32,000 bases of DNA, taken from the NCBI RefSeq assembly GCF_001545095.1, contig NZ_CP013213.1:420001-452000 (forward strand). The letters are read 5' to 3'. The notes below the pieces were generated by a model. The model was not told where the DNA came from, made no database searches, and saw only the letters and a list, made by a program, of their open reading frames with translations. Below, in pieces: positions 2,612-21,166 of the stretch (the stretch's first letter is position 1; each line of letters begins with the position of its first letter). The stretch is from Erysipelothrix larvae (GTDB lineage: Bacteria > Bacillota_I > Bacilli_A > Erysipelotrichales > Erysipelotrichaceae). A program made the translations under genes and the position numbers.

Positions 2612-2624
2612 AAAATAAAGAAAA

Positions 2625-2657: not shown

Positions 2658-2660
2658 ATT

Positions 2661-4872: not shown

Positions 4873-5375
4873 AGATTATCCTCCTTTATTAAAAAATTTT
4901 ATACATGGTCTGTACAAAAAGATTGTAAAACTAATTGGATTGGAAAGAAAGGCACATTTTTTTCTTACTTACGAAAAAAAAGCGCCGTTCATGGTTCATA
5001 ACGATGAAATAGTCTGGTTTTTAACGTTAATATGTGATATTTTTTTCACACTTTTAAGAAAAAACAGGCATATCAAATGTAAAAAAAACCAACTAAAATG
5101 TACATTTTTGCTTAATTTCTTAGTAAAGAAAGGTCTTTTGAAAAGTGACGTTAAGAATAAAGAACTACGAAATTCAATCGCGAACATGAATCAATAATCA
5201 ATTTCTTTCTTGTACTAGAAAAGAAATTTCTAGAGGTGTAAACTACCCCGATTCTTGGTGAAATAACTGATAAAATTCACATATAAAGCGGTTTTGTGGG
5301 GTTGTTTGAAAAAAGAAACAGGGGTAGTGCTTGAGGTGAAATCCATGCCGATACCTATAAATCAATGAATATTTG

Positions 5376-5404
5376 TTGACAGAGGAAAAAATGTTGATTA
5401 CACT
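5376..5404 (+). promoter_or_regulatory. Sigma-A-type promoter candidate for the DUF4177 gene
   Basis: TTGACA (5376-5381), a 17-nt spacer, then TACACT (5399-5404). It lies about 50 nt upstream of the ATG at 5454. Confidence 0.45.
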
Positions 5405-5453
5405 ATTATGTCAGCAGCATGTGTAATCTGACAGTATCAAGGAGAAAATACAT

Positions 5454-5657
5454 ATGAAACAATTCGAATATAGAGTTGTATATTCTGATATTACAACCGA
5501 TCCTTCTTTAGTTTATGACCTAAATGAGATGGGGAAAGATGGATGGGAACTTGCTTCCATTAGCAATCATCCTCAAGTTGGGGGTGTTGAAAAGAATATA
5601 TTTGGAATCGCAAAGAAAAGCGTTCTTGTTTTCAAACGCGAGATTGTTGAACCATAA
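5454..5657 (+). CDS. Small DUF4177-like protein (67 aa)
   Basis: AAGGAG RBS at good spacing. The pattern M.Q(F/Y)EY.V..........LNE.G.DGWEL is the signature I associate with DUF4177. Confidence 0.65.
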   Translation: MKQFEYRVVYSDITTDPSLVYDLNEMGKDGWELASISNHPQVGGVEKNIFGIAKKSVLVFKREIVEP

Positions 5658-5676
5658 AATTATAAAAAAGTATATA

Positions 5677-5742
5677 AAAAGAGGCAGGATCACAGGTGGC
5701 ATAAACTATGTTTAAATTCCACTGTGAACACGCCTCTTTTTT
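5677..5742. terminator. Long imperfect stem-loop between convergent genes, a possible bidirectional terminator
   Basis: The outer stem is aaaagaggc (5677-5685) / gcctctttt (5732-5740). The inner stem is cacag(g)tgg / ccactgtg. T-runs follow on both strands. The structure abuts the EAL gene stop at 5741-5743. Confidence 0.4.
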
Positions 5743-6931
5743 ATTCGTCTGGATAGTGCTTCATAAAGTCGATTGCATCATCAAAATTAAGTGGCTTACT
5801 GAAGTAATACCCTTGGATAACATTACAGCTCTTATTTTTAAGCCAACTTACTTGGTGTTCAGTTTCGGCACCTTCCGCAACAATGTCAAGTCCTAACTCA
5901 TTTGCCATGGTAATGATACTGTTTAGGAAACGCTCATCCTTATTAATGTCGTCGATAAATGTTTTGTCTATTTTGAGAACATTGATATCCAGTTCGCGAA
6001 GGCGTAACATGGATGAATAGCCTCGACCATAATCGTCGATGTATGTTGTGATCCCTAACTCATTGAGTTCAGCAACACGTAATTTAAGCAAATCAATTGT
6101 ATCGTCAAATGTAGATTCAGTAATCTCAAAACCAAGTTGCTGAGGCGATACTTTATAAAATTCCAACAGTGTTGTGACATTGTGAATACAATCGGGATGT
6201 AAGACGTATTCATTGGGTGCATTGATTGACACAATGGGTTTGGAATAACCTTCTCGATTTAGTTTCTGAATAAACTCAAGGGCTTGTGTTAGAATCCAAC
6301 GTGTTAATGCGTTATAGTAGTCGGAGTTTTCTGCAATCTCGAAAATGAGTGGGGGTGGGATAAAGCCATACTCAGGATGAATCCAGCGTGTGAGAGCTTC
6401 AAATCCTACAATCTCATGGGAGTCTACATCAATTTGTGGTTGGAATACAACAAATAATTGATTTGAGAATCCTTGAACTGAAAGCAATCGTAAATCACGT
6501 TCAATCACTTGACGTCGTATGAGTTCTTGATGGATATCTTCGGTTACGATAATTTGTGATGTATCCGAAGCTTCTTTGAGTTGCATCGTGGTAACTTTAT
6601 AGGATTCAAACAGTGTATCAACACTGTCTACTTCTAAAATATCGGTAATATAAGTTGTTCTGAGTTCAAAGTTAAAGTCAACATCATTGATAACATCTTG
6701 AATTGATTTCAAGACTGCATCTTCATTTCGGTTGTGTGAAAGCATGAAGAATACATCATCTTGATAACGGTAGATTTCTTCACTCTCAGAATGTGTCTTC
6801 AAGATATCAACAAATCGTTTTAGGTTATCAATCAGCGTCTCATGTGTATTGAGAAGTTGCATCCGACGGAAGTTGGTGATCAAGAAAACTGAAACAGTCG
6901 TATGGGGGGTGCTATTGGTTTGTTGGAGCAT
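5741..6931 (-). CDS. c-di-GMP phosphodiesterase with an intact EAL domain preceded by a degenerate GGDEF-like domain
   Basis: EAL-domain motifs are all present: QPQID...GFEALTRW, SINAP, EITES, DDYGRGYSS, KIDKTFI, AEGAETEHQ, QGYYFSKP. The N-terminal ~130 aa resemble a GGDEF domain, but the signature is replaced (RYQDDVFFML in place of R.GGDEF). Confidence 0.85.
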   Translation of the reverse strand: MLQQTNSTPHTTVSVFLITNFRRMQLLNTHETLIDNLKRFVDILKTHSESEEIYRYQDDVFFMLSHNRNEDAVLKSIQDVINDVDFNFELRTTYITDILEVDSVDTLFESYKVTTMQLKEASDTSQIIVTEDIHQELIRRQVIERDLRLLSVQGFSNQLFVVFQPQIDVDSHEIVGFEALTRWIHPEYGFIPPPLIFEIAENSDYYNALTRWILTQALEFIQKLNREGYSKPIVSINAPNEYVLHPDCIHNVTTLLEFYKVSPQQLGFEITESTFDDTIDLLKLRVAELNELGITTYIDDYGRGYSSMLRLRELDINVLKIDKTFIDDINKDERFLNSIITMANELGLDIVAEGAETEHQVSWLKNKSCNVIQGYYFSKPLNFDDAIDFMKHYPDE

Positions 6932-7243
6932 ATCGTAATTTGAACGTTTTCTATTGGTTTGGTGGGGATAAGAGGGATTTTGGGTTCTAAGTTTGTGATT
7001 GTGTGTAGTGATAAGTCTTTTAGTGTTTGTGAATCGTTATCTTAGTAGAGGGCAGATACTCTTCGTGTTTTTTTTAATTTCGTATGCATGGTTTTTGTTG
7101 TCTGTATGTAGGGTTGGATGTATGTGCTTGAGGATAATGAGTAGGGGGTGTTGTCTCATTAAACGGTTTATTTTGTTATGGGTGTATAAGGTTACACATA
7201 ATTTAGTAGTGTGGAAAGAAATAATAATGGGGGGAAAACCAGT

Positions 7244-10200
7244 ATGAAGGATAAACGATTATCGAATGTGTTGGTATCATGTTTTATGTTTTTAATCATG
7301 GTTGCGTCGTCAATTTCTTTTTTTAATGTACGGGCAGAAGATGTTGTCTGTAGTGAATTATCGCCTGTGGAAGGGTTTGTGAAAAGAGAGACTTATGCGC
7401 GTTTTTTTGATGAAAACATGGAAGAATATGCGACGAAATATTTATTGGAGTTTTATGTACAGGGGCGTCTTAACACAACGCTTTCTCGTGTAGTTGAAGA
7501 TGGTAAACCGTATACGATTTTAGAGCGTGATTTACCCAAACATGAATCAAAGTGTTGGCGTGTTATTGAGGTGACACGTAATTTTGAAGCATCAGATGTC
7601 TATGGGTTGGGGAGTGTCTTAACCTACAGTCGTGATTTTAGGAATGTCTTAATACGTCTAGTTCCGTTTGATGAACCTGATCATATCGTGGAGCATCGTG
7701 TTGATTTTATGGTAGGACAGGATGTGTTTACATCAATTATGGTTCGTGATGGGAATGTTGTAAACATGCCAAAAGAGACACCACCTAAACCGAATTATAA
7801 ATTGCAGTTTAAGGGATGGTTTATTGATGAGGATCTTTTGATTCCTTTTGATAGTACTGAACCGATAATTGGTTATTTGAAGCTTTATGCAGGGTTCAAA
7901 AACACCTTCACAGTAACGTTTAAGGATGCTTCGGGTGAGGTTTATGATATACGTGAGGGTGAAATTGGTAGAGGGATTGATGCGCCGTCGCAAAACCCAA
8001 AATCGCTGGTTGAGGGTATGGATTTTCAATTTTGGATGAATGAAAGCGATCGCAGCGATGCTATGGTTGATTTCCCACTTGGAGTATATAAAGACATAAC
8101 CCTGATTCCTTATTTTAGTAATGAGAGTACTGTGAATTTTTATTCAAGTAATACGTTAATTGATTCTCAACACGTTAAAGTGGGTGAATCGATACAAAAC
8201 TTCCCAACGCCACAAAATGAAGGGTATCATTTTGAAGGGTGGGGGTTGAAGGCGGATGCTTCATGGGAAAATCAAGAAGATTTCTTTGATGTGACGACAC
8301 CGATAACCAGTCCAATACAGTTATTTGCGATATGGCGTCCCTTGATTGTTTCATATAGAGTTGATTACTATGTTGAGAAATTGAACTTTAAAGGGCGACC
8401 TGGGACTAATCTACATAATTATCAACATACTGCAAGCGTTAATATTGATGAATCAAACAGTAGTGTCTATGCAGGTACTGTAATCGATGGAGATCAACTT
8501 CGTGATTATGCAAATCAGTATTTTACCGATGCAACGAATGGTACACTTGGCACACATGACGTCAGCAGCTTGAATCTTGATTTGTTGTTTTCTGAGTTTA
8601 GTTTTGGTGCTTCTACTATCATCCAAGGGGATGGTTCATCCATCATCCAGGTATACTATACACGCATCCCATTAAGTGTTCGTTTTGATTTAGGATCGAG
8701 TTTTGAAGCAATTGAGATTAATGGGGAAGTCTATCATCAATCACAATCTGTTTATACTTTAATTGCGAAATATGGTCAAGATATCAGTGAACTCTTTCCA
8801 GGACAAAGTAATGTGTGGAATAAAGATGGGAATCAATTTGAATCGTGGTCCGTAGTTGGGACACAGAATGCTGTGGGTCAGGATGTTAAGGTTCTTGGTT
8901 CACCTTCAACGTTCCCCTATTGGTTGGTTCCTGTTAACTATGAAACCAATCGGTTAATCACATTAAAAGCAAATGTTGCTGTCAATAGCGAACAAGCCAG
9001 TCGTCATGTTTATGTGTCAGTCAGTGAACAACACTTAAAAAATGTGCCGATATCAGAAGTTTTTGAGTTGAGTCAAGTAGAAGGTCTTAAAGTGTTGGCA
9101 CCACACTTCATACGCCATGAAGGTGTTACTTATGAACATGTGGATAAATATGATGAAACATTTATTGTATCCAATGGATTGCAATCCAGTAGTGATGCAC
9201 TCCCAGTCATTAGCGGTCAAACCTTTCATTCCAGTCATATAGTGAACCATGTCGAAATGAAGCGTGTCTCTCAATTCATTTTTTACACGCGAGATGAAGT
9301 CGCGCTTCACTTTGATCCAATGCAAGGATCACTTGAGCCCGCTGAGAAGGTCATGGCTATCCCATCGGGTGATACGATATCACAGTGGCTTAAGGATCAT
9401 GAGATGGATCTTCCAGTGCCAAAGCATCCAAAAGAGAATCATCAGTTTTTAGGGTGGTATACGACCAATAATCCAAACAATGCGTTAGAATTTGATCCTC
9501 AAAGTAAGATGCCGACACAAAAGTGGACCGTGTTTGCCTTATATGAACCAAACGTGAATTCAGTTGAGATCTATTCCAGCACTCTTGATGGCAATTATAT
9601 AGACTTCCAATCCATTAATCATGGGGAGCCTGTGAAAGAGATTTCTAAGTTCAAGAAGGGGTATTATTATGATGGATTGGGGCAATTCATAGGATGGGGT
9701 GTCTATGCACCAGATTTGATTCAATATAACTTTAATGAAGCCGTATATAAAGATCTACAAATATATGGGATGTGGAAAAACAACGACTTTAGAATTACTT
9801 ATGACTTGGGGGATGGTTTAGGTATGGCTCCAGTCGATACGAATACCTATCAATTCAATGATCGTGTTTCTTTACCACAGAGATTGGATATTCGCAATTC
9901 TAAGGGTGATTGTTTAGTGGGTTGGGTTGATACGAAGTCCAATGAATTCTATGACCCGGATATACGTTATCGCATTCAATACGATACAATCTTTAAGGCA
10001 GTGTATCTTCCACAAAATTCTGATGTATCAACGGTAGAATATCATGAAAATAATGATTCAGAAGGACAGAGATTAACGTATGTCCTTTTGGTAAATGATG
10101 TGCTGAATCGAACGTTTGATAAGGGATACTTTGAAAGAGAAGGGTATGTTCAAATTGGGTGGTCTACTACCTCTAGTGGTCCTGTTGACATTGGTCTATA

Positions 10201-12304
10201 TGAAATAATCCAGTTGAATGATACAATCCGTAAGAACGACTTGGGAGATATAATATTATTTGCAGTGTGGGAGAAAATTCCTACCTATTCAATCACCTTT
10301 TTGATTGAAAAGACGGGTGGTGGGACGTTCATTAAGGATGAACAAAGTCTTGATACGATTCGTTTTGACGAAATCAAAATTGGTCAGAAGTTTAAAGATA
10401 TTGTGACTGAGTATCCTAAAGTACAGGCAGATGAGGATTATGTATTCTCACATTGGAGCTTTGATCAAGTAGAGGCCGAGCCGATGTATGTTCAACAAAA
10501 CCTTGTCGTTTATGCTCATTTTGTACAAACCAAGACGTTGGATTTAAGCTTAGTGACCCTGACGCCATCAACAAAGACATACAGTGAACAAGACCCAACT
10601 TATCAGGTTGAATGGCCCTTTGATGCACCACAGGAACATTTTGATTTTATCACCAATCGTGAAGCAGGTGAAACGGTACGCGAAACACCTTATGAAGTAA
10701 CACTCAGCATTCGACCAAAACCTCGATATGAACGATTTTATACAATGGTGAATGCCGTAGCACCAAGCACACTAAGTATTTTACCGTTAAATGTGAGTGT
10801 GAGTCCACAGGACAATGAGAAGACATATGGAATGGATGATCCAGAGATATTGAGTGCTGTATCTGTTGACTTTGAAGTGCTTGAGCATGCAATGGCTGAT
10901 TTTAAGAAACCTGAAGTTGTCTTCACGGTGGAGCGTGACATAGGAGAAAATGCGGGAGATTATGAAATCAACGTCCACCCAATCAGTGATCCAAATTATA
11001 CTTTCACAACCCATAAGGCAATCTTTAGGATTCACAAACAAACGACGCCTTTAGTCCTTGAAGCACCTAATCTATCAAAAATCTATGGAGATCCTGATCC
11101 GACTCAAACCGAACTAATAAAAGGTGTCACGGGTAAAAATCTTTCATTACGGGATACCTTTGAAGCACTGAAATTGAGTGTAAGTCGTGAGCCAGGAGAA
11201 GGGGCGAATGTTTATAAAACAACCGTGAATTTTGATCCAATTGTGTATGAAAATTATGCGAGTGTTGAAGTTGTAGATGGGACACTCACAATTGATAAAC
11301 GGAACATAACATTACATGTGGACAATCTCCCTCAAGGCGATACGGTATTGTATCAAGACAGCATATTACCGCCACTACGTGCAAGACTTGATCAAAACAC
11401 ACCTCTGGCATTCAATGATGAAGCCTTAAATTATGAAGTTTATCTTGTAGACTATGAGGGTTCATTTGACAAGATGACCTATGATATCAGTTGTCGGTTT
11501 GATCCTGAGGATTTAGTGAATCGAAATTATAATATTAAGGTGGTGAAGGGAACCTTAACCTTGCGTGAAAAACCTGTCGTTCCATCACCCCCTGAATCTT
11601 CAAAGGATCGTGAAGTTGGTCCAGAGAAAGTAAAACCACCTGTCCCAAATGTTCCAGAAACAGGTGAAGAAACAAACCAATCATCCAGCGAAAAAACTCC
11701 TGATTCTAAATCATATGAAACAACAAAAGAGCCGGATGTTCAAAAAGATGCTATAAGTCCTCCGGTGAATAAAGAGGCAGTGATTGAACACGGTAACAAA
11801 GGGGTAGTGATTGAACACGGTAACAAAGGGGAAGTGGTTGAACAAGGTAACAAAGATGCAGTGGTTGAACCTGGTAAAAAAGAAGAAGTGGTTGAACCTA
11901 GTAAAAAAGAGAATACGGTTCCCGTTGATCGTACCAGTGACCTCAATTTTACACAAAATACGACATGGTCGCTTGTGAATTTAGCGGTCGCACTGTGTAC
12001 TTTTATCTCAGCATGTCTTCTTGCACTAGGACTCATTAAACAAACAAAACTTAAGGGTGAATTGAGTGATGAAGACTCACCTACTATGTATTGGACCCAT
12101 GTCCGTACCTGGCAAATCTTATCAGTACTTGGTGGACTGAGTGCTGGAATTCTTTTTATCATCACACAAGATATGGTGGGTAAGATGGTATTGAGTGATC
12201 GATGGACCCCTTATATGGTAGCCTTATTGGGAATTCAAGGCGTATGTGGTTTAATTGGGTATCTAAAAAAGAAACGCGCACACGATTTGAATAACGAGAA
12301 ATAA
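7244..12304 (+). CDS. Giant (1686 aa) surface protein with a signal peptide, multiple Listeria-Bacteroides (Flg_new) repeats, MBG-type domains, a P/E/K-rich stalk with 9-aa tandem repeats, and a three-TM C-terminal anchor
   Basis: The ATG at 7244 is preceded by a GGGGGGA RBS. The signal peptide is MKDKRLSNVLVSCFMFLIMVASSISFFNVRAED. Flg_new-like units recur (F.GW...........(L/I)YA.W). MBG-like units are present (KTYGMDDPE, KIYGDPDPT, ...GDYEI...NYN...GTLTI). The C-terminus has three hydrophobic segments and no LPXTG. Confidence 0.85.
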   Translation: MKDKRLSNVLVSCFMFLIMVASSISFFNVRAEDVVCSELSPVEGFVKRETYARFFDENMEEYATKYLLEFYVQGRLNTTLSRVVEDGKPYTILERDLPKHESKCWRVIEVTRNFEASDVYGLGSVLTYSRDFRNVLIRLVPFDEPDHIVEHRVDFMVGQDVFTSIMVRDGNVVNMPKETPPKPNYKLQFKGWFIDEDLLIPFDSTEPIIGYLKLYAGFKNTFTVTFKDASGEVYDIREGEIGRGIDAPSQNPKSLVEGMDFQFWMNESDRSDAMVDFPLGVYKDITLIPYFSNESTVNFYSSNTLIDSQHVKVGESIQNFPTPQNEGYHFEGWGLKADASWENQEDFFDVTTPITSPIQLFAIWRPLIVSYRVDYYVEKLNFKGRPGTNLHNYQHTASVNIDESNSSVYAGTVIDGDQLRDYANQYFTDATNGTLGTHDVSSLNLDLLFSEFSFGASTIIQGDGSSIIQVYYTRIPLSVRFDLGSSFEAIEINGEVYHQSQSVYTLIAKYGQDISELFPGQSNVWNKDGNQFESWSVVGTQNAVGQDVKVLGSPSTFPYWLVPVNYETNRLITLKANVAVNSEQASRHVYVSVSEQHLKNVPISEVFELSQVEGLKVLAPHFIRHEGVTYEHVDKYDETFIVSNGLQSSSDALPVISGQTFHSSHIVNHVEMKRVSQFIFYTRDEVALHFDPMQGSLEPAEKVMAIPSGDTISQWLKDHEMDLPVPKHPKENHQFLGWYTTNNPNNALEFDPQSKMPTQKWTVFALYEPNVNSVEIYSSTLDGNYIDFQSINHGEPVKEISKFKKGYYYDGLGQFIGWGVYAPDLIQYNFNEAVYKDLQIYGMWKNNDFRITYDLGDGLGMAPVDTNTYQFNDRVSLPQRLDIRNSKGDCLVGWVDTKSNEFYDPDIRYRIQYDTIFKAVYLPQNSDVSTVEYHENNDSEGQRLTYVLLVNDVLNRTFDKGYFEREGYVQIGWSTTSSGPVDIGLYEIIQLNDTIRKNDLGDIILFAVWEKIPTYSITFLIEKTGGGTFIKDEQSLDTIRFDEIKIGQKFKDIVTEYPKVQADEDYVFSHWSFDQVEAEPMYVQQNLVVYAHFVQTKTLDLSLVTLTPSTKTYSEQDPTYQVEWPFDAPQEHFDFITNREAGETVRETPYEVTLSIRPKPRYERFYTMVNAVAPSTLSILPLNVSVSPQDNEKTYGMDDPEILSAVSVDFEVLEHAMADFKKPEVVFTVERDIGENAGDYEINVHPISDPNYTFTTHKAIFRIHKQTTPLVLEAPNLSKIYGDPDPTQTELIKGVTGKNLSLRDTFEALKLSVSREPGEGANVYKTTVNFDPIVYENYASVEVVDGTLTIDKRNITLHVDNLPQGDTVLYQDSILPPLRARLDQNTPLAFNDEALNYEVYLVDYEGSFDKMTYDISCRFDPEDLVNRNYNIKVVKGTLTLREKPVVPSPPESSKDREVGPEKVKPPVPNVPETGEETNQSSSEKTPDSKSYETTKEPDVQKDAISPPVNKEAVIEHGNKGVVIEHGNKGEVVEQGNKDAVVEPGKKEEVVEPSKKENTVPVDRTSDLNFTQNTTWSLVNLAVALCTFISACLLALGLIKQTKLKGELSDEDSPTMYWTHVRTWQILSVLGGLSAGILFIITQDMVGKMVLSDRWTPYMVALLGIQGVCGLIGYLKKKRAHDLNNEK
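11771..11905 (+). repeat. Five in-frame tandem copies of a 27-bp unit (9-aa repeat K-x-x-V-(I/V)-E-x-G-(N/K)) inside the giant surface protein gene
   Basis: Copies lie at 11771-11797, 11798-11824, 11825-11851, 11852-11878 and 11879-11905 (aaaggggtagtgattgaacacggtaac and variants). They translate as KEAVIEHGN KGVVIEHGN KGEVVEQGN KDAVVEPGK KEEVVEPSK. Confidence 0.9.
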
Positions 12305-12313
12305 AAAATAGTT

Positions 12314-12354
12314 AAAAAAAGAAAATGGCCGAAATTAAATTTGGCCATTTTTTT
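12314..12354. terminator. Bidirectional intrinsic terminator between the giant surface protein gene and Mga-like paralog 3
   Basis: aaaatggcc (12322-12330) pairs with ggccatttt (12343-12351). An A7 run lies upstream and a T7 run downstream. It sits exactly between the stops at 12304 (+) and 12353 (-). Confidence 0.7.
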
Positions 12355-13840
12355 AAGATTTATGCGTTGCGATATCAAGAATAAGATTACGCAAGTGCGT
12401 CCATTCCGCAAGATTGGGAATATAGGACAAGCGTACGACAGGACACGGGATATCTTCAGAATTGGGAATGTCATAATTCGCTACGACCAAATCAATCTGA
12501 TTGTCTTTGATTTTCTCAAAGGTAATGGGTTCATTGAAGATGTATTGTGGTTTTGTGGAATGTGGAATCATAAAATAGGTTGCTTGGATTAAGAAATCAT
12601 CATAACCCGGTTCTCCTTGAAAGGAGAATAAAATCTTCACTTCATTTTGTTTTAAATGACTCAACAAAGAGAAATGAAGCATAGCGAGTGCAGAGGCAAC
12701 ATCTTGAGTATTGGTGATTTCAAACACATCTTGAGCGTGTTTGGTTTTTAAATGTTCCATCCACGTTAAATAAAACTTGTTAATGGATTCTTTGGTAAAG
12801 ATTCGTGTTGCTAATGAGAGCTTTTGAAAAGAAGGGGAGATTTGCGATAAGGATCTAAGATTGATTAAGAACGAACGCATGTTTTCAATGTAGGCACTTG
12901 ACATTATTGATGCATCAAATTCTAAGGATAAAAAGTTATCGACGCGCTTTAAGAAGTCATCTGTTACTTCGCGGTGAAATACAAAGGTTTCATAATTCAA
13001 TTCACTATAGGAAACACAATGAAGCATGATTAAATAAAGCCATCGAATTTCATCTTCAGAAACATCATCCAGATTAAACTGATCTGAAAAAGCCTGTTGA
13101 ACACAGGTCTTGAATCCCTGATAATTATCCAAAGACTTGGATTCAATTGAATAGGGTGTTTTGATCGTTAAGGTGTTTTGAGTACTTAGGCGTTGTTTTA
13201 GAATCATAAACCACAAGGTTGTTCTAAAGTAATTGAGATGCAGCTTTTTACCATTATAATTGGATGCAGTTTCTAAAAGCAGTTGATAGGTTGGACTGTT
13301 TGTTTCATAGTCAGGATCGGTAACAGTTAGGTCGTTGAAGTCTGAATAAAAGGCATAGAAAAAGTAGCGAATATCCGATTCACCGCCTTTAAATTCTACA
13401 GTCGATGTGGACAGAGAAATATTAAATTGTTTCAATTCTTCATTAATATGGGATAAGGTGCGTTTTAGAGTAAAGGGTGAAATAAACAGGTTATAGGTTA
13501 GTTCATCAAAGGTATAAATTTCATTGTGAAAGAGCCCATCTATAATCTTATAAACATCAGTATTCTTTGCAAGTTCCATGGTAATTTTAGGGATTGAAAG
13601 TCCTTCAGGATAACTTAAAAAGTAACCGTTTTTCCCTAAGGATTCCACGCGCATATAGGGTGGGAGCTCTTCATTGAGTTCTCGAATGTCGGAACGAAGG
13701 GTTGGAATGGAACATTCAACGTGTTCTGCCAGTTCAATGATACTGACTGAAGAGTGCACTGAAGACAAGTAGTAAAGTACTTGGACTTTACGGCTGAATT
13801 GTTTGTTGTTGTTGAGCGCGTAGAATAAACGTTTAAACAT
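12353..13840 (-). CDS. Mga-family transcriptional regulator, paralog 3 (closest to paralog 2)
   Basis: The ORF is 495 aa and is preceded by AGGAGG. The HTH is VSIIELAEHVECSIPTLRSDIREL. By eye it is roughly half identical to 3361-4872. The two genes share a 17-nt identical DNA block, gtccattccgcaagatt (12399-12415 versus 3407-3423). Confidence 0.75.
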   Translation of the reverse strand: MFKRLFYALNNNKQFSRKVQVLYYLSSVHSSVSIIELAEHVECSIPTLRSDIRELNEELPPYMRVESLGKNGYFLSYPEGLSIPKITMELAKNTDVYKIIDGLFHNEIYTFDELTYNLFISPFTLKRTLSHINEELKQFNISLSTSTVEFKGGESDIRYFFYAFYSDFNDLTVTDPDYETNSPTYQLLLETASNYNGKKLHLNYFRTTLWFMILKQRLSTQNTLTIKTPYSIESKSLDNYQGFKTCVQQAFSDQFNLDDVSEDEIRWLYLIMLHCVSYSELNYETFVFHREVTDDFLKRVDNFLSLEFDASIMSSAYIENMRSFLINLRSLSQISPSFQKLSLATRIFTKESINKFYLTWMEHLKTKHAQDVFEITNTQDVASALAMLHFSLLSHLKQNEVKILFSFQGEPGYDDFLIQATYFMIPHSTKPQYIFNEPITFEKIKDNQIDLVVANYDIPNSEDIPCPVVRLSYIPNLAEWTHLRNLILDIATHKS

Positions 13841-14150: not shown

Positions 14151-16586
14151 ATGAAGAAACGATTCACAACAATGTTATTTCGAGGGCTACTGTGTTTCAT
14201 GATGGTGCTAACAAGTATCCCCTTTATTAATCCTCTAGATGTGGATGCCAGTTCGGTATCATCAAAAATCGATTACATGAACATCCACTATACGATGGGC
14301 TCATATAAGGGTCAACTGGGTCGCATCTATGTTGATAAACTTTTAGCTGTATGTATTGAACCAAGTACAGAGTTTATTGGGGGCGATTATGCGAAACACC
14401 CCATTAACAACAGTGGATTAAGTGAAACAAAACTAAAGAAGATTCGTCTGATTGATTACTATGGTAAACAGATGAACATGGCGGAGGATGACCATGTCTA
14501 TGCAACCGTACAATTGTATATTTGGGAAGTGATATCAGAGCGCATTGTATCGTCAATTAATGGAGACTTATCACTGATACACTATGAATCAATTAAAGAG
14601 CAAATCAATCGAAGCATTACGCGTCATGATATGATGCCTTCATTTCATAACAAAACATTCGAAGTTGAAGAAAACACGACCTTTGAACTGTTGGATACAA
14701 ACGCTGTGTTAAGTCAATTTGTTGTTACTTCGTCAAATCCAGAGGTTGCAACCCTGACGCAAAGCGGGAATAAGCTCATCATCAAGACACATAAAGAAGG
14801 AACCTTTGAACTAAAGGGGCAAAAAATCGATGCCAAGGATGTCGGTGACAGCTTTTCCTATTTAAAACCAGGACTTCAAACCTTAGCAACCCTAAAGTTG
14901 GATGATCCACTCAACCTTTTTGTATCCTTCACATCAACCACATCAAATGAATCCTTTGAGTTAACAAAACTGGATGATCAAGGAAATGTTGTGGAAGGGG
15001 CAGTGTTTGACATTGGGGGAATTAAATATACCACCAACAAAAACGGTAAAATTCTAATATCAGATCTCAAACCCCAGACCTTAACCTATCAAGAAACCTT
15101 TGTACCCGATCCTTTAATCGTGGATCATAAAACCTACGAAGTGAGCATTGAAAAAGGAAAGACAGCCCTTGTTTCTGTGGAAAATAAGACCGCAACTGGA
15201 AAAATCACGCTGAAAAAAACCACTGAAGATGGAAACGGTGTTGAAGGGGTACGCTTTGGAATTTATCGCAATCAAATTGAAATCATGCAAGTAATTACAA
15301 ATTCAAAAGGAGAAGCACAAAGCAGTGCTTTACCATTGGGTGAGTATGAAGTGATTGAATTAAGTGTTCCTGATTATCTCATCCTCGATCAAACACCACG
15401 AAAAGCAGTGCTTTCCTATAAAGACCAAGACACGCCCATTGTGTATGCGCACATCGATATCACCAATTTGTATCGACCGGTCGCAACAATCAGCACCTCA
15501 CGCATTCGTATCGATACTCAAAAGGCTGAGGATGGTTTGCTTGTTGAAGCTTGGTTTTCAAAAACCATGCATTATCACGATGCAGTCAATGACTTTAAAG
15601 AAACCACTGTACGGGTAGAAGTGGTGAATCAGACTTATCAATCCATAGTTTATTCCCAAGAGTACACGGTGCTAAGTTTACCTGATTTTGATGTTTATCA
15701 GCTTCCATCTCACATTCAAGGCATTGATGAATCGCATCACTATGAAGTGAGATTGTCGACTCAAGAAAGTCATAAAGTAACCCTTGAACACCCATCCATC
15801 AATACCTTAGGGGTTACTGCATCCCAACAATCCATGTTTGAAAACAGCCAAGATACCCCGACACTGTATGTTGAAGGGATTGTTCGTACAGAACGCTATC
15901 AAGGGCAAAGCATGCTGATGTATTTTGAGCGCTTTGAAATAACAGTTCCCCAAATGGATGCATTGATTGCAGGACGGGGATTTGCTTATGATGTCACAAC
16001 ATCGTATTCCAATGACCTAAACAAAACAACACAGGTTAGCCTTACCCTCATGGCGCATAATGAACTGGTGGATGGGGATTGGTATGCGCGCACGGCTTCG
16101 ATGGCGATGATTCCTTTAGAAAATAAAGGAACAATGCATCAGGTACCGCGTGTGTATGCCTATAAAGATATCAGTGGCGCACTTATTAATGAAACGACGT
16201 ATCAAACCCTGACACAACAACAAAAAGAACAATACCGGGATGGGGGTCATCAAATCTTGACACCCCTGTGGTCTTCTGACTTGGGAATTTATCATCTGAA
16301 ACTTGTATCAGATCCAATTGGGGTTCATGAAATTACAGTTACCTTTAGTGATCAAATCGAATTGTATGCGTATCTGTTTGGGTGGGAAAATGATGAAGGC
16401 CCTTCACCAACAATCAAATCAGACCAAGTGTTGGTATCTCCAATATACAGTGCTGATGCGAATCAAAATGGCACCCTTGATGTATGGGAAGACACACCGA
16501 TGCCAGACAATTGGGGGATCACGCAAAAGGATGGATCAAGGACCTTATCCATCGCCGAGAAACAGTTTTTAGACCTTAACAATTAA
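14151..16586 (+). CDS. Secreted 811-aa adhesin-like protein with a signal peptide, a possible thioester (TQXA-like) domain, two SpaA/Cna-B-type Ig-like domains and a ~350-aa C-terminal region of unknown fold; no sorting signal
   Basis: The ATG at 14151 is preceded by AAAGGA. The signal peptide is MKKRFTTMLFRGLLCFMMVLTSIPFINPLDVDA/SS. Possible thioester motifs are AVCIEP (Cys codon 14352-14354) and TVQLYIW (Gln codon 14511-14513). Cna-B/SpaA-like units are FELTKLDDQGNVVEGAVFDI... and GKITLKKTTEDGNGVEGVRFGIY...LPLGEYEVIELSVPDYLI. There is no LPXTG or C-terminal TM segment. Confidence 0.7.
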   Translation: MKKRFTTMLFRGLLCFMMVLTSIPFINPLDVDASSVSSKIDYMNIHYTMGSYKGQLGRIYVDKLLAVCIEPSTEFIGGDYAKHPINNSGLSETKLKKIRLIDYYGKQMNMAEDDHVYATVQLYIWEVISERIVSSINGDLSLIHYESIKEQINRSITRHDMMPSFHNKTFEVEENTTFELLDTNAVLSQFVVTSSNPEVATLTQSGNKLIIKTHKEGTFELKGQKIDAKDVGDSFSYLKPGLQTLATLKLDDPLNLFVSFTSTTSNESFELTKLDDQGNVVEGAVFDIGGIKYTTNKNGKILISDLKPQTLTYQETFVPDPLIVDHKTYEVSIEKGKTALVSVENKTATGKITLKKTTEDGNGVEGVRFGIYRNQIEIMQVITNSKGEAQSSALPLGEYEVIELSVPDYLILDQTPRKAVLSYKDQDTPIVYAHIDITNLYRPVATISTSRIRIDTQKAEDGLLVEAWFSKTMHYHDAVNDFKETTVRVEVVNQTYQSIVYSQEYTVLSLPDFDVYQLPSHIQGIDESHHYEVRLSTQESHKVTLEHPSINTLGVTASQQSMFENSQDTPTLYVEGIVRTERYQGQSMLMYFERFEITVPQMDALIAGRGFAYDVTTSYSNDLNKTTQVSLTLMAHNELVDGDWYARTASMAMIPLENKGTMHQVPRVYAYKDISGALINETTYQTLTQQQKEQYRDGGHQILTPLWSSDLGIYHLKLVSDPIGVHEITVTFSDQIELYAYLFGWENDEGPSPTIKSDQVLVSPIYSADANQNGTLDVWEDTPMPDNWGITQKDGSRTLSIAEKQFLDLNN

Positions 16587-16613: not shown

Positions 16614-17060
16614 ATGAGAAAATACTTCATAACATTTCTAGTCTTTGGGTGTGGAATGGCGCTGTTTTTCATGCTGTATCAATACAATATGAAGTCAATT
16701 AAACGTGATGGGGTGATGGAAACTCTGGAAAGAACCAGTGAAGTTGCGTATATCAATGCTTTGGATGGATCATATCGAATCACCAAAGGATCCATGAATA
16801 TCACAAGTCAAGAAACCTATGAAACGATATTTAAAGAGATCTTTCTTAACGACTCCACGGTTAATCTTGATCAAGAACACGTCATCTTTGCCTTTGAGTA
16901 CTTAGTTGAACTTGAAGATGGCACAACACTGAATACCGCATTACCCCAACAATTCATTCACCAAGGTGGCGTTGTGAAGGGGATTCGAAATACAGTATGG
17001 GTAGATGGTCAAGATTATTCGGTACGCTATATCTTAGATATATCGAAAGGGCGTGAATAA
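16614..17060 (+). CDS. Small membrane-anchored protein (148 aa), a possible pilus assembly factor or minor pilin-like protein
   Basis: AAGGAAG RBS. An N-terminal TM helix (YFITFLVFGCGMALFFMLY) is followed by a ~120-aa soluble domain. The gene sits immediately upstream of, and is coupled to, the secretion ATPase gene. Confidence 0.5.
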   Translation: MRKYFITFLVFGCGMALFFMLYQYNMKSIKRDGVMETLERTSEVAYINALDGSYRITKGSMNITSQETYETIFKEIFLNDSTVNLDQEHVIFAFEYLVELEDGTTLNTALPQQFIHQGGVVKGIRNTVWVDGQDYSVRYILDISKGRE

Positions 17061-17063
17061 ATT

Positions 17064-18317
17064 TTGTTCAAAAGCAAATCAAACCATGAAACCATTCAAT
17101 CCAATGCCGACATCGGTGGCATGATGGCTGTGATTGAAGATTCCATTAACACAGATTATCCAGAACTATCTGTTAAAGCACTTTTTGATAAACAGGCAAG
17201 AGAAACCTTGCGCATCAACCTCATTAAGGATCATAAGGGTCGATTAAGTGAAGACGCATCCCACCGTATCTTATCCGAGATTGTTGGACTGGGCTTTTTT
17301 GAAGAACTTATCAAAGATGAATCCATTACAGATATTGGCTATAACGGAACGGATTTATGGGTCAAGACCAGTGATACAAAACGCCGCATGCATCACCCTG
17401 ATCTCAATGAAGCCTATATCCTAAAGATCATTCAACGGTTCTCAAATTATGTCCATCAAGAGTTTTCTGAGAAATCACCGATATTAAATGCCCAATTGGA
17501 TAACATACGCATTAATGCAATCCACCGCAAACTCTCACCAACAGGGACTACTATGTCCATGCGCCATGCCCGAAATCGCCTCGTATTAACACACGAAAAC
17601 TGGCACCAATTTGCCCATGATGCAGTGTTTGATCTACTGGATTTATGTCTAAAAATTGGCATCAACCTTGTGATTACAGGGGAAGTTGGAACGGGGAAAA
17701 CTGAACTTCAAAAGCTGTTGATTGGTTCAATTCCTGATGACTTTAAATTGATTATGGTAGAAGATACCTTGGAAACACATCTTAAGGATATTTATCCTGA
17801 TAAAGATATCTTGTCATGGCTTGTTGCACCAGGGTTTAGTCACACTCAGTTTATTAAAGAAGCCCTTCGAAATGACCCAGTCTATACAGTGTTATCCGAA
17901 GCACGCGATCACGCAATCTATGAAATCCATCAATCCGTGTTATCGGGACACAAGATACTATTAACGGCCCATTCCGTGAATGCTCGCGCATTTATCCCAC
18001 GCATGATTGGGATGACTAAACAAAAGTTTCACGTCGATGAAGCTTCCTTGAAACAAGAAATCCTGCGTTACTATGATTTTGGCATTCATTTGGATAAACG
18101 CACGGTGCATGGGAAAACCCTGCGATTCATTTCAGAAGTTGTGGAATATACCGATGCAGGACTTCAGACCTTGTATTCAAAGGATGTCACCATTGATCCA
18201 CAAACCCAACACCTCAGTGAAACCCAACAGTTTTATCCACTTTCAGATGCGATGGTTGATCGCTTATATAAATATGGTTATTCACCACAATGGAATGAGC
18301 GAATCAAAGAGAGGTGA
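17064..18317 (+). CDS. Type II/IV secretion-system ATPase of the CpaF/TadA (T2SSE) type
   Basis: Walker A is VITGEVGTGKTELQKLL, the Asp box is LIMVEDTLE, the Walker B-like motif is TVLSEARD and the His box is ILLTAHS. The N-terminal domain contains ITDIGYNGTDLWV. The start is uncertain: TTG at 17064, 3 nt after the upstream stop, or ATG at 17121. Confidence 0.85.
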   Translation: MFKSKSNHETIQSNADIGGMMAVIEDSINTDYPELSVKALFDKQARETLRINLIKDHKGRLSEDASHRILSEIVGLGFFEELIKDESITDIGYNGTDLWVKTSDTKRRMHHPDLNEAYILKIIQRFSNYVHQEFSEKSPILNAQLDNIRINAIHRKLSPTGTTMSMRHARNRLVLTHENWHQFAHDAVFDLLDLCLKIGINLVITGEVGTGKTELQKLLIGSIPDDFKLIMVEDTLETHLKDIYPDKDILSWLVAPGFSHTQFIKEALRNDPVYTVLSEARDHAIYEIHQSVLSGHKILLTAHSVNARAFIPRMIGMTKQKFHVDEASLKQEILRYYDFGIHLDKRTVHGKTLRFISEVVEYTDAGLQTLYSKDVTIDPQTQHLSETQQFYPLSDAMVDRLYKYGYSPQWNERIKER

Positions 18318-18323
18318 TGTTTG

Positions 18324-19127
18324 ATGAAACAGGTGATGAATATTGACCAACTCAATGCCATTCACATGAACTATGAAGCAAAACTCACACGGAAGCACAT
18401 CGCAAAGATGCTGATATTCCCCACACTGTATGTCCCAACTTTATTATTCACAATCTTCTTAAGGTGGTGGTTAATCCCAATTGGGTTACTTGCAGGATTA
18501 GTGTATGGGGGATTGGTGATGTTGCCTTTAATCATCACAGCAAACTACCAAAACAGAGCATTTAAAGAACGCAATCGATTTGTCAATAACTTAGCACAAA
18601 GCTTACATCGAAAAAATATCACGATCTTGGATGCACTGCGTGAAGTCTCAACCCATCGTTTAAAGGGAGAGTTAAAAAATGATGTGGATGTCTTGGCGTA
18701 TCATGTCGCCATACACGATACCAAAACACGTAAAAATGCGTATCAAGCGTTGATTCAGAAATATGAACACGATCGACTCTTTGTGCAATTTATTGAACAT
18801 GTAATAACGGTAGACTTGAACGGACTTGATTCACTACAACCCTTGAATGAAACAGCACAATCACACGACAAAGCTCTGTTATGGCAAGAACACTTTATTG
18901 ATTCAAAGAAGCAATCGCTCATTTATTTTATCACCAATAATGTACTGGCGTTTTGCTTGTGTGTGGCTGTTATTTGGCTGACGTGGGATAACTACATAGA
19001 ATGGTTTGTGAAAACACCAGTTGGGTGGGTGTTTGGCTCACTTTATCTTTGTTTGACCTTCTTTTATAACCATCGCTTTGTTGTTGATTACTTTGATGAA
19101 TCAATCATGGAGGTGAAGGTCAAGTGA
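18324..19127 (+). CDS. TadB-like inner-membrane platform protein (T2SSF-like topology)
   Basis: The ATG at 18324 is preceded by GAGGTG. Two N-terminal TM helices are followed by a ~130-aa helical cytoplasmic domain and two C-terminal TM helices. The gene lies directly downstream of the ATPase. The family call rests on topology and synteny, not on a motif match. Confidence 0.55.
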   Translation: MKQVMNIDQLNAIHMNYEAKLTRKHIAKMLIFPTLYVPTLLFTIFLRWWLIPIGLLAGLVYGGLVMLPLIITANYQNRAFKERNRFVNNLAQSLHRKNITILDALREVSTHRLKGELKNDVDVLAYHVAIHDTKTRKNAYQALIQKYEHDRLFVQFIEHVITVDLNGLDSLQPLNETAQSHDKALLWQEHFIDSKKQSLIYFITNNVLAFCLCVAVIWLTWDNYIEWFVKTPVGWVFGSLYLCLTFFYNHRFVVDYFDESIMEVKVK

Positions 19128-19861
19128 AACAATCGTTTGGGTTGTCGCTTTTACCCCAAGAGATCGTGCAAAAGAAACATGAAATGGGAACAACCTATCA
19201 TAAAATTGCATCGTGGAGTCTCAAAATGCACTGTGGTCTTGTGGGAATCTTAGTGTGTGCAGGATGGATCGCGGTTCAAACATCCATGAAAGGGGTCGCG
19301 TGTGGTCTTGTGTTATCAGTGGTATTATTGCGAGCCTTAATGCTCTTCAATGTGAGACAAGCGTACCAAGGGTTTCGAGACGCGCGCAATGTAGAGTTTC
19401 TCTATTTCTTCAGTCTTTTAGTTCCACACCTCTCACAAGCGGTTGGTGTAAAAACTGGATTGTATCGGATTCTCACAAAGCTTGAGATACGCCTTGAAGA
19501 TCAAAGCATCTTGAAACAAGGTGTGAATCGTTTGGTCATCCAGATGACCAATCACCCGGGAAATATTGAACCCTTCCTCGAGTTCGCCCGCCTTTGTTCA
19601 GGGACTGAACTTGCGGAAGATGTTGCGGTCGCGCTGTTTGACTTCCAACAAAACAGTGATGACCAAGAGGCCATAAATCGCCTTAAAGATAAAGTTAATA
19701 AAGCACTGGATAAGCGCATGGAGGATGTTGTAACGCGAAAGATATCACGATTCCGATGGTATTCATCGCGTGTGGTGATGTCAGTATTCGTCCTCATTCT
19801 TGGCATTTTAGGAACCTCCATTTGGGCAGAAATTATGCGTGCATTCAGTGTCATTAAATAG
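19124..19861 (+). CDS. TadC-like inner-membrane platform protein (T2SSF-like topology)
   Basis: The GTG start overlaps the upstream stop (GTGA), with GGAGG about 11 nt upstream. Two N-terminal TM helices are followed by a ~130-aa cytoplasmic domain and a C-terminal TM helix (VVMSVFVLILGILGTSIW). It is the second platform paralog, as in Tad loci. Confidence 0.55.
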   Translation: MKQSFGLSLLPQEIVQKKHEMGTTYHKIASWSLKMHCGLVGILVCAGWIAVQTSMKGVACGLVLSVVLLRALMLFNVRQAYQGFRDARNVEFLYFFSLLVPHLSQAVGVKTGLYRILTKLEIRLEDQSILKQGVNRLVIQMTNHPGNIEPFLEFARLCSGTELAEDVAVALFDFQQNSDDQEAINRLKDKVNKALDKRMEDVVTRKISRFRWYSSRVVMSVFVLILGILGTSIWAEIMRAFSVIK

Positions 19862-19871: not shown

Positions 19872-20237
19872 ATGTTTAAAGCAGAAAAATCAGTCGTAGT
19901 TGATTTTCTTACGGTGTTTATATGGGGAATGATTACAATTTTTATGGTTGTATTTCTCATTGTGTTTAAACAAGTCTCCGACAATAATCACTTCAGTGCC
20001 TATGCCAGCAGTGTCATTTCACGCCATGGTGGCTTAACGCAAAAGGCTAAATCTGTCATTGACGCTTATAGTGAAAACCACTACAACGGTCGTTATTTTA
20101 TTGAAAGCGAGATTCAAGAGGCGCAACACTATGGAACACCGCTAACCTTTATCATCTCAAATAACACAAAGGTTTTGTATTTTGATATTCCCATACGCAT
20201 TCAGTTTAGTGGCTCTGCCACATCGAGGATTCGGTGA
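19872..20237 (+). CDS. Pseudopilin-like protein (121 aa; TadE/TadF-like size and topology) with N-terminal MFKAEK followed by a TM helix
   Basis: AGGAGG lies 8 nt upstream of the ATG at 19872; the track start at 19839 is an in-frame GTG within the preceding gene. The N-terminus is MFKAEKSVVVDFLTVFIWGMITIFMVVFLIVF, followed by a ~85-aa beta-rich domain. Confidence 0.6.
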   Translation: MFKAEKSVVVDFLTVFIWGMITIFMVVFLIVFKQVSDNNHFSAYASSVISRHGGLTQKAKSVIDAYSENHYNGRYFIESEIQEAQHYGTPLTFIISNNTKVLYFDIPIRIQFSGSATSRIR

Positions 20238-20377
20238 TGTTTAATGCAGAGAAACAAACAGCCTATGAGCTGGTCATGATTTTGTATTATGTGGGAATCT
20301 TTATTACCGTGATTACAGTTGTATGGGGTTTGTTTGACCAAACCATCATGATTGAACACCCATATCACTTATTTTAA
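20237..20377 (+). CDS. Unlisted 46-aa mini-pilin-like membrane protein (MFNAEK followed by a TM helix)
   Basis: This ORF is not in the supplied track because it is under 60 aa. Its ATG overlaps the upstream TGA (TGATG). The translation is MFNAEKQTAYELVMILYYVGIFITVITVVWGLFDQTIMIEHPYHLF, with a TAA stop at 20375-20377. It shares the F-x-AEK-plus-TM pattern with both neighbours. Confidence 0.55.
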   Translation: MFNAEKQTAYELVMILYYVGIFITVITVVWGLFDQTIMIEHPYHLF

Positions 20378-20382: not shown

Positions 20383-20619
20383 ATGAAAGGAACCAATAAC
20401 CAAATGAACAAACAAACAGTAAATCAAAAATCAAACGAAATGAAGGGATGTTTCTATGCAGAAAAAGAACAAACGAACACATTAGTTGGGATTATCTTTA
20501 TTCTCGCGATCGCAGTTGGAGTCGGAACTATTTTTCTCTCATCGTTTCCAAAAATTGGTGATCAAGTTATTGAAACAGTTGAACGCCAATTTAACCGCAT
20601 TGAATCAGGCAATGACTAA
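20383..20619 (+). CDS. Flp-like prepilin candidate (78 aa) with a polar N/Q/K-rich leader ending in Gly, then CFYAEK and a TM helix
   Basis: MKGTNNQMNKQTVNQKSNEMKG / CFYAEKEQTNTLVGIIFILAIAVGVGTIFLSSF... The pattern G-XXXX-E resembles the Flp processing motif G/XXXXEY. The predicted mature size of ~56 aa is typical of Flp pilins. An alternative start is the ATG at 20440 (MKGCFYAEK). Confidence 0.55.
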   Translation: MKGTNNQMNKQTVNQKSNEMKGCFYAEKEQTNTLVGIIFILAIAVGVGTIFLSSFPKIGDQVIETVERQFNRIESGND

Positions 20620-21166
20620 CAGTGTCGCTTTAAAACTCAAGAAACGCTTGAGTCAATTGGTTTCAAATCCACGGCTTATTGATGACTTTAATATCTGTGT
20701 GGATTTGATGGTAGATGAAGGGTGTACAGTCCTACACCTCTTTGAATTGTTTCATGAGTTTGGCCATTATTGTAAGTGTATTGAACGAAACGGAACTGTG
20801 ACTCTGATTCAAGTGTCGCAGTTCATCTTTCTATTTAAAGACGATGCAATCACCCTAAACATCACCACACAACAATCCCAATCCTTCATTCTATGCACAC
20901 TTCCATTTGATGATCACCTATTAGAAAATCTACGCGCAGTATGTTATGAAGGGATGGTGTTTAGTCAAGCATGTATTCTCTACTGTTTTCCTTCCCTAAA
21001 AGCATGGGTCTTTAATGTGGTAAATGCGCCAAAATGGCCCTTTTATCGAAAAGGCAGTGATGCATATCTGTATCACAAGGGATTAAAGACACTAAAAGAT
21101 GCCCATCATTTTAATACCAATGCGCACCGCGAAACACTTAAAATAAGAGGTATGGATGGGTTATGA
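20612..21166 (+). CDS. Soluble Cys/His-rich 184-aa protein with an HExxH motif (HEFGH), last gene of the Tad-like operon
   Basis: The ATG at 20612 overlaps the preceding gene by 8 nt; the track TTG start at 20486 would run through the pilin gene. HEFGHYCKC is encoded at 20753-20767 onward. No TM segment or signal peptide is present. Confidence 0.5.
   Translation: MTNSVALKLKKRLSQLVSNPRLIDDFNICVDLMVDEGCTVLHLFELFHEFGHYCKCIERNGTVTLIQVSQFIFLFKDDAITLNITTQQSQSFILCTLPFDDHLLENLRAVCYEGMVFSQACILYCFPSLKAWVFNVVNAPKWPFYRKGSDAYLYHKGLKTLKDAHHFNTNAHRETLKIRGMDGL

Follow-up and report, generated by a model that had tools for sequence, protein, structure and literature searches.

Gene 34 of plasmid pLS20 encodes an adhesin, TIEpLS20 or Tie (TIE, for thioester, isopeptide and ester domains), which has a class II thioester domain (TED) and CnaB domains and carries no sorting signal (Gago-Córdoba et al. 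2021, PMC8092201). It works without host sortases, is needed for efficient conjugation in liquid, and has been placed in the same family as the pXO2-28-29-30 proteins (PMC8092201). In a 2024 study Tie was found in the cell-wall fraction and in surface foci, and was seen to drive cell clustering (PMC11730352). For pLS20, a proposed role of the C-terminal region of Tie is to keep the protein at the cell surface. Here we describe the gene at 14151 to 16586 (+ strand), and the eight genes behind it, in a stretch of 32,000 nucleotides (the window in what follows) of the 2,495,108-bp chromosome of Erysipelothrix larvae (contig NZ_CP013213.1, positions 420,001 to 452,000). By homology, the gene product adds a new, divergent protein to the TIEpLS20/pXO2-28 family, with a TED of the SaTIE type. 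A sortase-less TIE adhesin ahead of an ATPase module is already known from pLS20; what is unusual here is the context, since the adhesin/ATPase module is chromosomal and an orphan, the window having no DNA-transfer genes. We consider it very likely that the locus comprises a TIE-type adhesin and an orphan module of the pLS20/pXO2 type, most likely captured from a conjugative element, and that it serves, or recently served, adhesion.

The class II TEDs with crystal structures belong to sortase-anchored relatives. The thioester of a TED is made by a Cys, which lies in a [YFL]CΦζ motif, and a Gln from a late β-strand, whose ΦQζΦΦ motif is weak; no other residue is universally required (Miller et al. 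2018, PMC6194298). A further motif, TQXXΦW on helix α2, supplies a Gln and a Trp that pack against the thioester; they do not form it and are not essential for forming it (PMC6194298). In SaTIE the thioester joins Cys296 and Gln467 (Miller et al. 2018, PMC6194298).

The adhesin and its thioester domain

The gene and the domains assigned to its product are as follows (aa, amino acids; E, expectation value; residues are numbered from the ATG at 14151):

14151..16586, + strand: Tie-like adhesin gene, 811 aa; residue blocks are signal peptide 1-33, class II TED 34-267, CnaB/SpaA 268-440, DUF8345 + PXO2_28_C 441-811
14250..14951, + strand: predicted class II thioester domain; Cys68 codon 14352-14354, Gln121 codon 14511-14513 with Trp125, predicted bond-forming Gln243 codon 14877-14879
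14952..15470, + strand: two CnaB/SpaA isopeptide-type stalk domains (PF17802, E 4e-20; putative triads by alignment to BaTIE)
15471..16586, + strand: C-terminal region common to TIEpLS20/pXO2-28 adhesins, DUF8345 + PXO2_28_C (Pfam on P0001 and P0002, alignment, tblastn)

The longest open reading frame (ORF) opens at a GTG at 14061; the ATG at 14151 has GAAAGGA ahead of it at the right distance, and the stop is at 16586. The N-terminus resembles a signal peptide, with MKKRF (charged KKR), a hydrophobic core and VDA/SS. An earlier reading of the letters of this DNA (the sequence-only reading) had pointed to this signal peptide and to the motifs AVCIEP (Cys68) and TVQLYIW (Gln121 and Trp125), all of which are present in the 811-aa ORF; Cys68 is the only Cys in the mature protein. 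The two SpaA/Cna-B-type domains that it had named are found by Pfam, the full-length protein matching PF17802 (SpaA/CnaB) twice at E 4e-20 and no other domain above threshold. Its remark that the protein ends without LPXTG, transmembrane segment or other anchor agrees with the scans, which were empty past the signal peptide: no LPXTG-like sorting motif ([LIVFNS]PX[TSA][GNASD]) occurs along the whole adhesin, and there is no hydrophobic window outside residues 5-31, in the signal peptide, and no transmembrane anchor. The protein does not show the combination of motif, hydrophobic segment and charged tail that marks a sortase-anchored LPXTG surface protein or pilin. The gene product is predicted to be a TIE-type fibrillar adhesin that is secreted.

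Profile searches, a structural model and column conservation all point to a class II TED at the N-terminus. The isolated N-terminal 264 residues score 18.7 bits against the Pfam TED model PF08341, below the cut-off of 22 (residues 68-131). The Pfam model is matched by 30 of 32 members of the TED family (best E 6e-12), and a 32-sequence family profile finds one solved structure, SaTIE-TED of S. aureus (6FX6), with the whole domain covered (E 7e-45); as a single sequence the window TED matches 6FX6 at E 5.5e-13. The AlphaFold2 model of the domain has a mean predicted local distance difference test (pLDDT) of 93.9 and a predicted template modelling score (pTM) of 0.87. When this model is compared with the PDB by Foldseek, the top three matches are class II TED crystal structures, 6fx6 (E 2e-16, template modelling scores 0.69/0.71), 6fwv and 6fwy, and the class II fold, a TED head with an inserted β-sandwich, is seen in the model.

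Conservation was read from a wider family, collected with a profile of four relatives from 1.84 billion representative proteins (2242 matches at E <= 1e-3, 1483 at E <= 1e-10) and reduced to 146 representatives, one per cluster at 50% identity. The sequence-only reading had proposed conservation of its Cys and Gln among homologues as a check, and both are conserved: the Cys68 column is Cys in 141 of the 142 representatives with a residue there, and the Gln121 column is Gln in 144 of 146; the Trp125 column is Trp in 143 of 146. The family consensus is A-[YF]-C-[ILV]-[EQD]-P-G ... Y-x-A-T-Q-x-[LM]-I-W-E, and the residues flanking Cys68 and Gln121 are variable within the family. In the window protein V-C-I-E keeps the Cys of [YFL]-C-Φ-ζ with Val in place of Tyr, Phe or Leu, and V-Q-L-Y-I-W corresponds to TQXXΦW with Val in place of Thr.

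The partner of Cys68 lies further along the chain. In HMMER alignments to 6FX6, Cys68 falls on chain residue 47 (Cys296) and Gln243, in GLQTLA, on chain residue 218 (Gln467), and L-Q-T-L-A at Gln243 agrees with the bond-Gln motif Φ-Q-ζ-Φ-Φ. The Gln243 column is Gln in 119 of the 146 representatives; the rest come mostly from the P0004 subfamily, where a one-residue alignment shift is the probable cause, since the sequence of P0004 reads QNQ here. An internal thioester is predicted between Cys68 and Gln243, 175 residues apart, a spacing in the normal range, while Gln121 and Trp125 are the auxiliary TQXXΦW motif and not the bond partner. The sequence-only reading was thus right about the domain and wrong about the residue pairing: it had joined Cys68 to Gln121, whereas the residue that aligns with SaTIE Gln467 is Gln243. 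Its worry over a Cys-Gln spacing of 53 residues is removed, because Gln243 is the predicted partner. A test of adjacency between Cys68 and Gln121 would seem to confirm the wrong pair, since the TQXXΦW Gln sits beside the Cys in real TEDs. At the tip of the adhesin the TED would form the Cys68-Gln243 thioester, with the Gln121/Trp125 motif packed against it, and an amine on the target would react to give a covalent link, as in the characterised relatives.

Behind the TED, residues 268-443 have BaTIE (6FWV) as their best solved relative (E 6.5e-11), and the predicted isopeptide triads, Lys273-Glu315-Asn345 and Lys356-Glu403-Asn439, line up with the BaTIE triads. The two CnaB/SpaA domains would form a short stalk, probably isopeptide-stabilised.

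The remaining ~370 residues are what marks the TIEpLS20/pXO2-28 family. Precomputed Pfam assignments place DUF8345 and PXO2_28_C on a near-identical protein (P0001) and on the homolog from Erysipelothrix anatis (P0002). The alignment of this region gives 44% identity to E. anatis and 28% to B. velezensis Tie (end to end), and the whole adhesin matches B. velezensis Tie at E 4e-34 (blastp). In a tblastn search of plasmids, residues 332-788 matched pLS20-family genes annotated 'thioester domain-containing protein' (E 2e-27) and, in the B. cereus group, 'fusion protein (includes pXO2-28-29-30)' (E 3e-25). A PDB sequence search with a profile of the region gave no meaningful match. When a set of 5.8 billion proteins was queried with the C-terminal 368 aa no match was returned, the query protein itself included, and scans of genome contigs with alignments of the Tie C-terminus and of p40 (see below) gave pattern matches and zero confirmed relatives. 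Family members, marked by these C-terminal residues, reach the cell-wall fraction without a sortase, and the same region may retain the window adhesin on the surface.

The adhesin shares with TIEpLS20 and the pXO2-28-29-30 adhesins of pXO2/pAW63-type plasmids the signal peptide, the class II TED, the CnaB stalk, the homologous C-terminus of ~370 aa and the lack of LPXTG. It differs from them in being 23-28% identical, in having two, not three, predicted CnaB domains, and in a TED that is closer to the SaTIE-type TEDs of enterococcal and clostridial plasmid adhesins. With SaTIE, BaTIE and EfmTIE86 (6FX6, 6FWV, 6FWY; PMC6194298) it has in common the class II fold with inserted β-sandwich, the aligned Cys and bond Gln, the TQXXΦW motif and the CnaB stalk; unlike these LPXTG proteins, which are anchored by sortase, it ends in a PXO2_28_C-type C-terminus. 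The closest full-length relative is the E. anatis 'InlB B-repeat-containing protein' (P0002; locus L001, 10001-13909), with 36% identity over the whole query. That protein has an extra Flg_new/InlB-B-repeat tail of ~470 aa after PXO2_28_C, and Glu for Gln in TQXXΦW (AAEELIW), with the Cys and the late Gln kept. A different solution is seen in a metagenome protein of 980 aa (P0003), in which a class II TED and CnaB adhesin, a transmembrane segment and then a sortase domain (PF04203) form one polypeptide.

The gene module behind the adhesin

The eight genes that follow the adhesin gene are listed with the sizes of their pLS20 counterparts, taken from the pLS20-family gene table (PMC8557374), in which gene 34 (Tie) has 768 aa against 811 aa in the window:

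16614..17060, + strand: homolog of pLS20 gene 36, 148 aa (126 aa in pLS20), with an N-terminal transmembrane or signal segment; blastp to a 142-aa E. anatis protein E 1e-17, also to E. faecium and Listeria
17064..18317, + strand: CpaF/VirB11-family secretion ATPase, 417 aa, counterpart of pLS20 gene 37 ('putative VirB11', 402 aa); PF00437 E 1.5e-16, 33-46% identity to plasmid and E. anatis counterparts
18321..19127, + strand: polytopic membrane protein p38, 268 aa, counterpart of pLS20 gene 38 (268 aa); blastp E 1e-34 to 3e-59
19124..19861, + strand: polytopic membrane protein p39, 245 aa, counterpart by homology of pLS20 gene 39 (243 aa)
19872..20237, + strand: p40, 121 aa (121-132 aa in the comparison), counterpart of pLS20 gene 40 (120 aa); N-terminal transmembrane helix and small domain, DUF4320-related; blastp E 1e-13 to 1e-25
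20234..20377, + strand: small protein of 46-47 aa with a single transmembrane segment, counterpart by position and size of pLS20 gene 41 (47 aa in both)
20383..20619, + strand: small hydrophobic protein, 78 aa; blastp E 6e-4 to a 50-aa B. velezensis protein; an internal ATG may be the true start
20558..21166, + strand: last gene of the module, 202 aa; homolog of a 186-aa E. anatis protein that precedes the channel genes of the type IV secretion system (T4SS) there; blastp E 5e-18

All nine ORFs are intact and co-directional, with junctions of 3-27 nt or overlaps, and the adhesin heads this tight cluster with its T2SSE-family ATPase, as the sequence-only reading had said in calling it the first gene of the operon. 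A promoter scan of the cluster stayed at background level, and no convincing terminator was found inside it. Collinear homologs of the module were found by blastp in pLS20, pXO2, an E. faecium plasmid, a Listeria plasmid, B. velezensis pID-A02 and E. anatis, and the same collinearity is seen in further plasmids and metagenome contigs. Homologs of p38 occur on 271 plasmids, 223 of which are typed conjugative. In the p40 family, 5 of 12 members match PF14208 (DUF4320), and NCBI gives the name DUF4320 to the pXO2-like and E. faecium copies; the literature searched has no mention of DUF4320. The 46-47-aa protein gave no significant blastp match to its counterparts, Pfam at relaxed thresholds gave no credible match for p36, p38, p39, p41 or the 78-aa protein, and PDB searches with p38 and p39 profiles gave no meaningful match. 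At the nucleotide level the DNA matches no plasmid.

Collinear with pLS20 genes 34 and 36-41 onwards, the adhesin gene and the eight genes after it are the counterpart of the mating-pair-formation front part of pLS20/pXO2-type Gram-positive conjugation operons; beyond the pLS20 table, the window module adds the 78-aa and 202-aa proteins. By homology and gene order, the adhesin with its ATPase and membrane-protein genes is what a widespread Gram-positive conjugation operon ordinarily has at its front end. As in the TIEpLS20/pXO2-28 systems, the adhesin is the first large gene before a gene-36 homolog, a CpaF/VirB11 ATPase, two membrane proteins, a DUF4320-like protein and small transmembrane proteins. 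The sequence-only reading had held such a pairing of adhesin and machine to be a new combination, a claim that cannot be kept: TIEpLS20 has the same architecture in the same place before the same ATPase and membrane-protein genes, and has been characterised experimentally (PMC8092201, PMC8557374, PMC11730352). In E. anatis the same eight genes follow the adhesin in the same order. Unlike in the window, ParA, ParB and SSB genes precede the module there and VirB6-like, VirB4-like and M23 hydrolase genes follow it, and for this reason the E. anatis locus is taken as a complete conjugative element.

Related plasmids show some further features of the module. In pLS20-family plasmids a protein of 47-51 aa is present in two or three tandem copies (L002 15918-17058; L006 10935-11450; L012 11108-11702; L015 11132-11754), each with the N-terminus M(S)FEANADR or MLDQNADR, one transmembrane helix and an amphipathic tail; the 78-aa ORF of the window (20383-20619) is related. 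These tandem small hydrophobic genes recall major pilin genes, yet have no leader peptide. Plasmids of ~181 kb in B. anthracis (the size of pXO1) and other large plasmids of the B. cereus group carry a second, more distant CpaF/VirB11-family gene, with ~24% identity to the window ATPase. Genes for WxL-domain proteins and a WxL-interacting protein (cell-wall-binding) adjoin Tie modules in a Listeria plasmid (L013 1554-3370) and in a metagenome contig (L018 12766-16409).

Chromosomal context and competing explanations

The window departs from TIEpLS20/pXO2-28 plasmids in that its copy is chromosomal, stands beside Mga-type regulators and has no VirD4, VirB4, VirB6 or hydrolase genes behind it. 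A tblastn search of the 32-kb window with VirB4, VirD4, VirB6-like, VirB2-like, ParA and ParB proteins found nothing, not even fragments, and the set of VirD4, VirB4, VirB6-like and hydrolase genes by which a conjugation operon is recognised is absent from it. On its 3' side the module has a pentapeptide-repeat gene and rlmN as neighbours. In contrast, in 12 related loci with enough flanking DNA, T4SS core genes come after the module on the same strand (VirB2-like, VirD4 and pLS20_p028-family, or VirB4-like with an M23 hydrolase). There are two clear exceptions without a T4SS core after the ATPase, both degraded in appearance. The Lactococcus plasmid pUCCL629A (L014 7663-12013) keeps only the ATPase and p38, beside a BspA-type leucine-rich-repeat (LRR) surface protein, and in L020 (1197-8080) the module is cut by cytosine methylase and McrBC genes.

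A contig of a sister strain (Logan SRR6161627_191) has the identical module arrangement and is 99.9% identical from window position 6946 rightwards; the context seen is the 32-kb window and, in this strain, ~6.5 kb more past its right end. Neither integrase, transposase nor pseudogene fragments were found flanking the module in the window, and the GC content is unremarkable. A gene upstream is a candidate regulator of the module, by its position:

12353..13840, - strand: divergent Mga-family regulator (PF05043 Mga, E 1e-19)

The module lies within an apparent adhesion island, seen in window 1-13840 and 27112-32000 and in L004 1-8814. Besides this gene, Mga-family regulators are found at 1103-2611 (+) and 3361-4872 (-), making three, and the island also holds an LRR/DUF285 protein (18-992), a 1697-aa MBG_2/Flg_new surface protein (7211-12304), a lectin and Flg_new protein (27112-29373, -) and an ORF of >2900 aa that runs past the right end of the window. 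To the left of window position 6946 the sister contig is unrelated; in place of the window's EAL-domain gene there are an N_methyl pilin, an MshEN+T2SSE ATPase and a T2SSE fragment of 92 aa. This difference (window 1-6946 against L005 1-2700) looks like the breakpoint of a strain-level replacement.

Several facts weigh against a captured module that serves covalent adhesion. The inspected DNA is 32 kb of a 2.5-Mb chromosome, which leaves room for a T4SS core at another place; and with strains as close as 99.9% identity, the module may be a recent relic. The thioester and the isopeptide bonds both rest on prediction, and an AlphaFold2 model of the C-terminal region, made from two sequences, is unusable (pLDDT 34.6). 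The TED scores below the Pfam gathering threshold (18.7 vs 22 bits), and Val precedes Cys68 where the family has Tyr or Phe, and Gln121 where it has Thr. The last two points would suit a domain that has the TED fold without the thioester and binds its target non-covalently, since the residues just before Cys68 and Gln121 are off consensus (AVC instead of A[YF]C, TVQ instead of ATQ). We find such a domain very improbable: Cys68 and Gln243 are both present and aligned with the bonded residues of SaTIE, and the flanking positions vary within the family anyway. With respect to origin, a decaying remnant, the front end left from an integrated conjugative element after deletion of the T4SS core and now functionless, would agree with the T4SS core that follows the module in the 12 loci, with the degraded look of both clear exceptions, and with the failure to find T4SS genes in the window. 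Nine intact ORFs with tight or overlapping junctions, flanks free of integrase, transposase and pseudogene fragments, a GC content that is not distinct, and a location among adhesin genes and Mga regulators that fits re-use argue the other way. Intact ORFs do not prove selection, and cannot separate a recent relic from a domesticated unit, because the two strains are 99.9% identical. A remnant is possible, if somewhat unlikely. That the module still acts in DNA transfer, as one half of a split system with its T4SS core elsewhere on the 2.5-Mb chromosome, is hardly probable; conjugation is the family function in all characterised relatives, and the DNA inspected is the 32 kb and the ~6.5 kb of the sister strain, but in the related loci examined the core genes directly follow on the same strand, and here housekeeping genes follow.

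The mode of display invites another explanation. The sequence-only reading had seen a Tad-like operon, and a true Tad/Flp-type type IV filament made by the downstream genes could deliver or display the adhesin, for example as its tip protein. The ATPase lends this claim some support, being nearest to CpaF: against solved structures CpaF (57.8 bits, E 9e-15) precedes FlaI (47 bits) and VirB11 (45 bits), and against plasmid genes Gram-negative CpaF (~E 1e-17) ranks above VirB11 (1e-9 to 1e-11). Against NCBIfam the TadA family gives 82 bits and VirB11 84 bits, both far under the cut-offs; the pLS20 copy is named tadA in RefSeq and treated as VirB11 in the literature (PMC8557374). The gene order, too, is like that of Tad/Flp pilus systems (CpaF/TadA, TadB, TadC, Flp, TadV), since the ATPase is followed by two polytopic membrane proteins, paralogous as TadB and TadC are, and then by a DUF4320-like protein with a single transmembrane segment and small hydrophobic proteins, of which related plasmids have tandem copies; and the adhesin has no other known anchor. 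However, p38 and p39, which are distantly paralogous (hhalign 81.6%, E 1e-5), have no detectable homology to TadB or TadC, the hhalign probabilities being 0.7-6% where the TadB-TadC control gives 96.4%, with small TadB/TadC alignments (3-4 sequences, from four plasmid Tad loci). Pfam T2SSF is found in 2 of 13 p38 relatives, at E 0.07. Peptidase_A24 (prepilin peptidase) and Flp_Fap had no match in the window ORFs scanned, those to the left of 29373 except the 119-aa ORF at 4838-5197. The small proteins start with M(S)FEANADR or MFNAEK and have no G/XXXXEY leader. Their F-x-A-E N-termini were considered as prepilin-like, with Glu at +5, and dropped, because neither E. anatis nor the Bacillus plasmids retain the pattern. 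Pili appear to be missing from Gram-positive conjugation systems, or are not formed by them (PMC8557374, PMC11730352), the literature searched gives no link of pLS20 to a Tad-type pilus, and the window module offers no evidence of a filament. 'Tad-like' is a lead and not a result, and we regard a filament of this type as unlikely.

The reading that we prefer remains that of a captured module. It would have come from a conjugative element, the DNA-transfer core would no longer lie beside it, and now or recently it would serve covalent cell-cell or cell-surface adhesion or aggregation, possibly under Mga-type control. The adhesin may depend on the ATPase module for this.

Significance for the TIEpLS20/pXO2-28 family

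Thioester adhesins bind their targets covalently, and how sortase-less conjugation adhesins stay on the cell is a question raised for pLS20. A doubtful but specific answer is a self-contained machine made of the adhesin, the CpaF-like ATPase, the two paralogous membrane proteins, the DUF4320-like protein and the small hydrophobic proteins. Without need of the DNA-transfer channel, it would export, anchor or extend the sortase-less adhesin, and a short filament related to Tad might be part of this. If this were true, the 'VirB11' of pLS20/pXO2-type systems would be the motor of an adhesin-display apparatus and not a T4SS ATPase, which would explain how Tie stays on the cell without a sortase, and the apparatus would have been domesticated here for adhesion.

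Should the module be a relic, the finding would be one of annotation only, correcting which Gln forms the bond. The locus adds to the family a divergent member from an Erysipelothrix-related chromosome, and a natural 'minimal' adhesin/ATPase module that stands apart from DNA-transfer genes. If the module works alone, it would be a clean system in which to study the role of the so-called VirB11 ATPase and its membrane partners, and the recruitment of conjugation adhesins to ordinary adhesion and aggregation.

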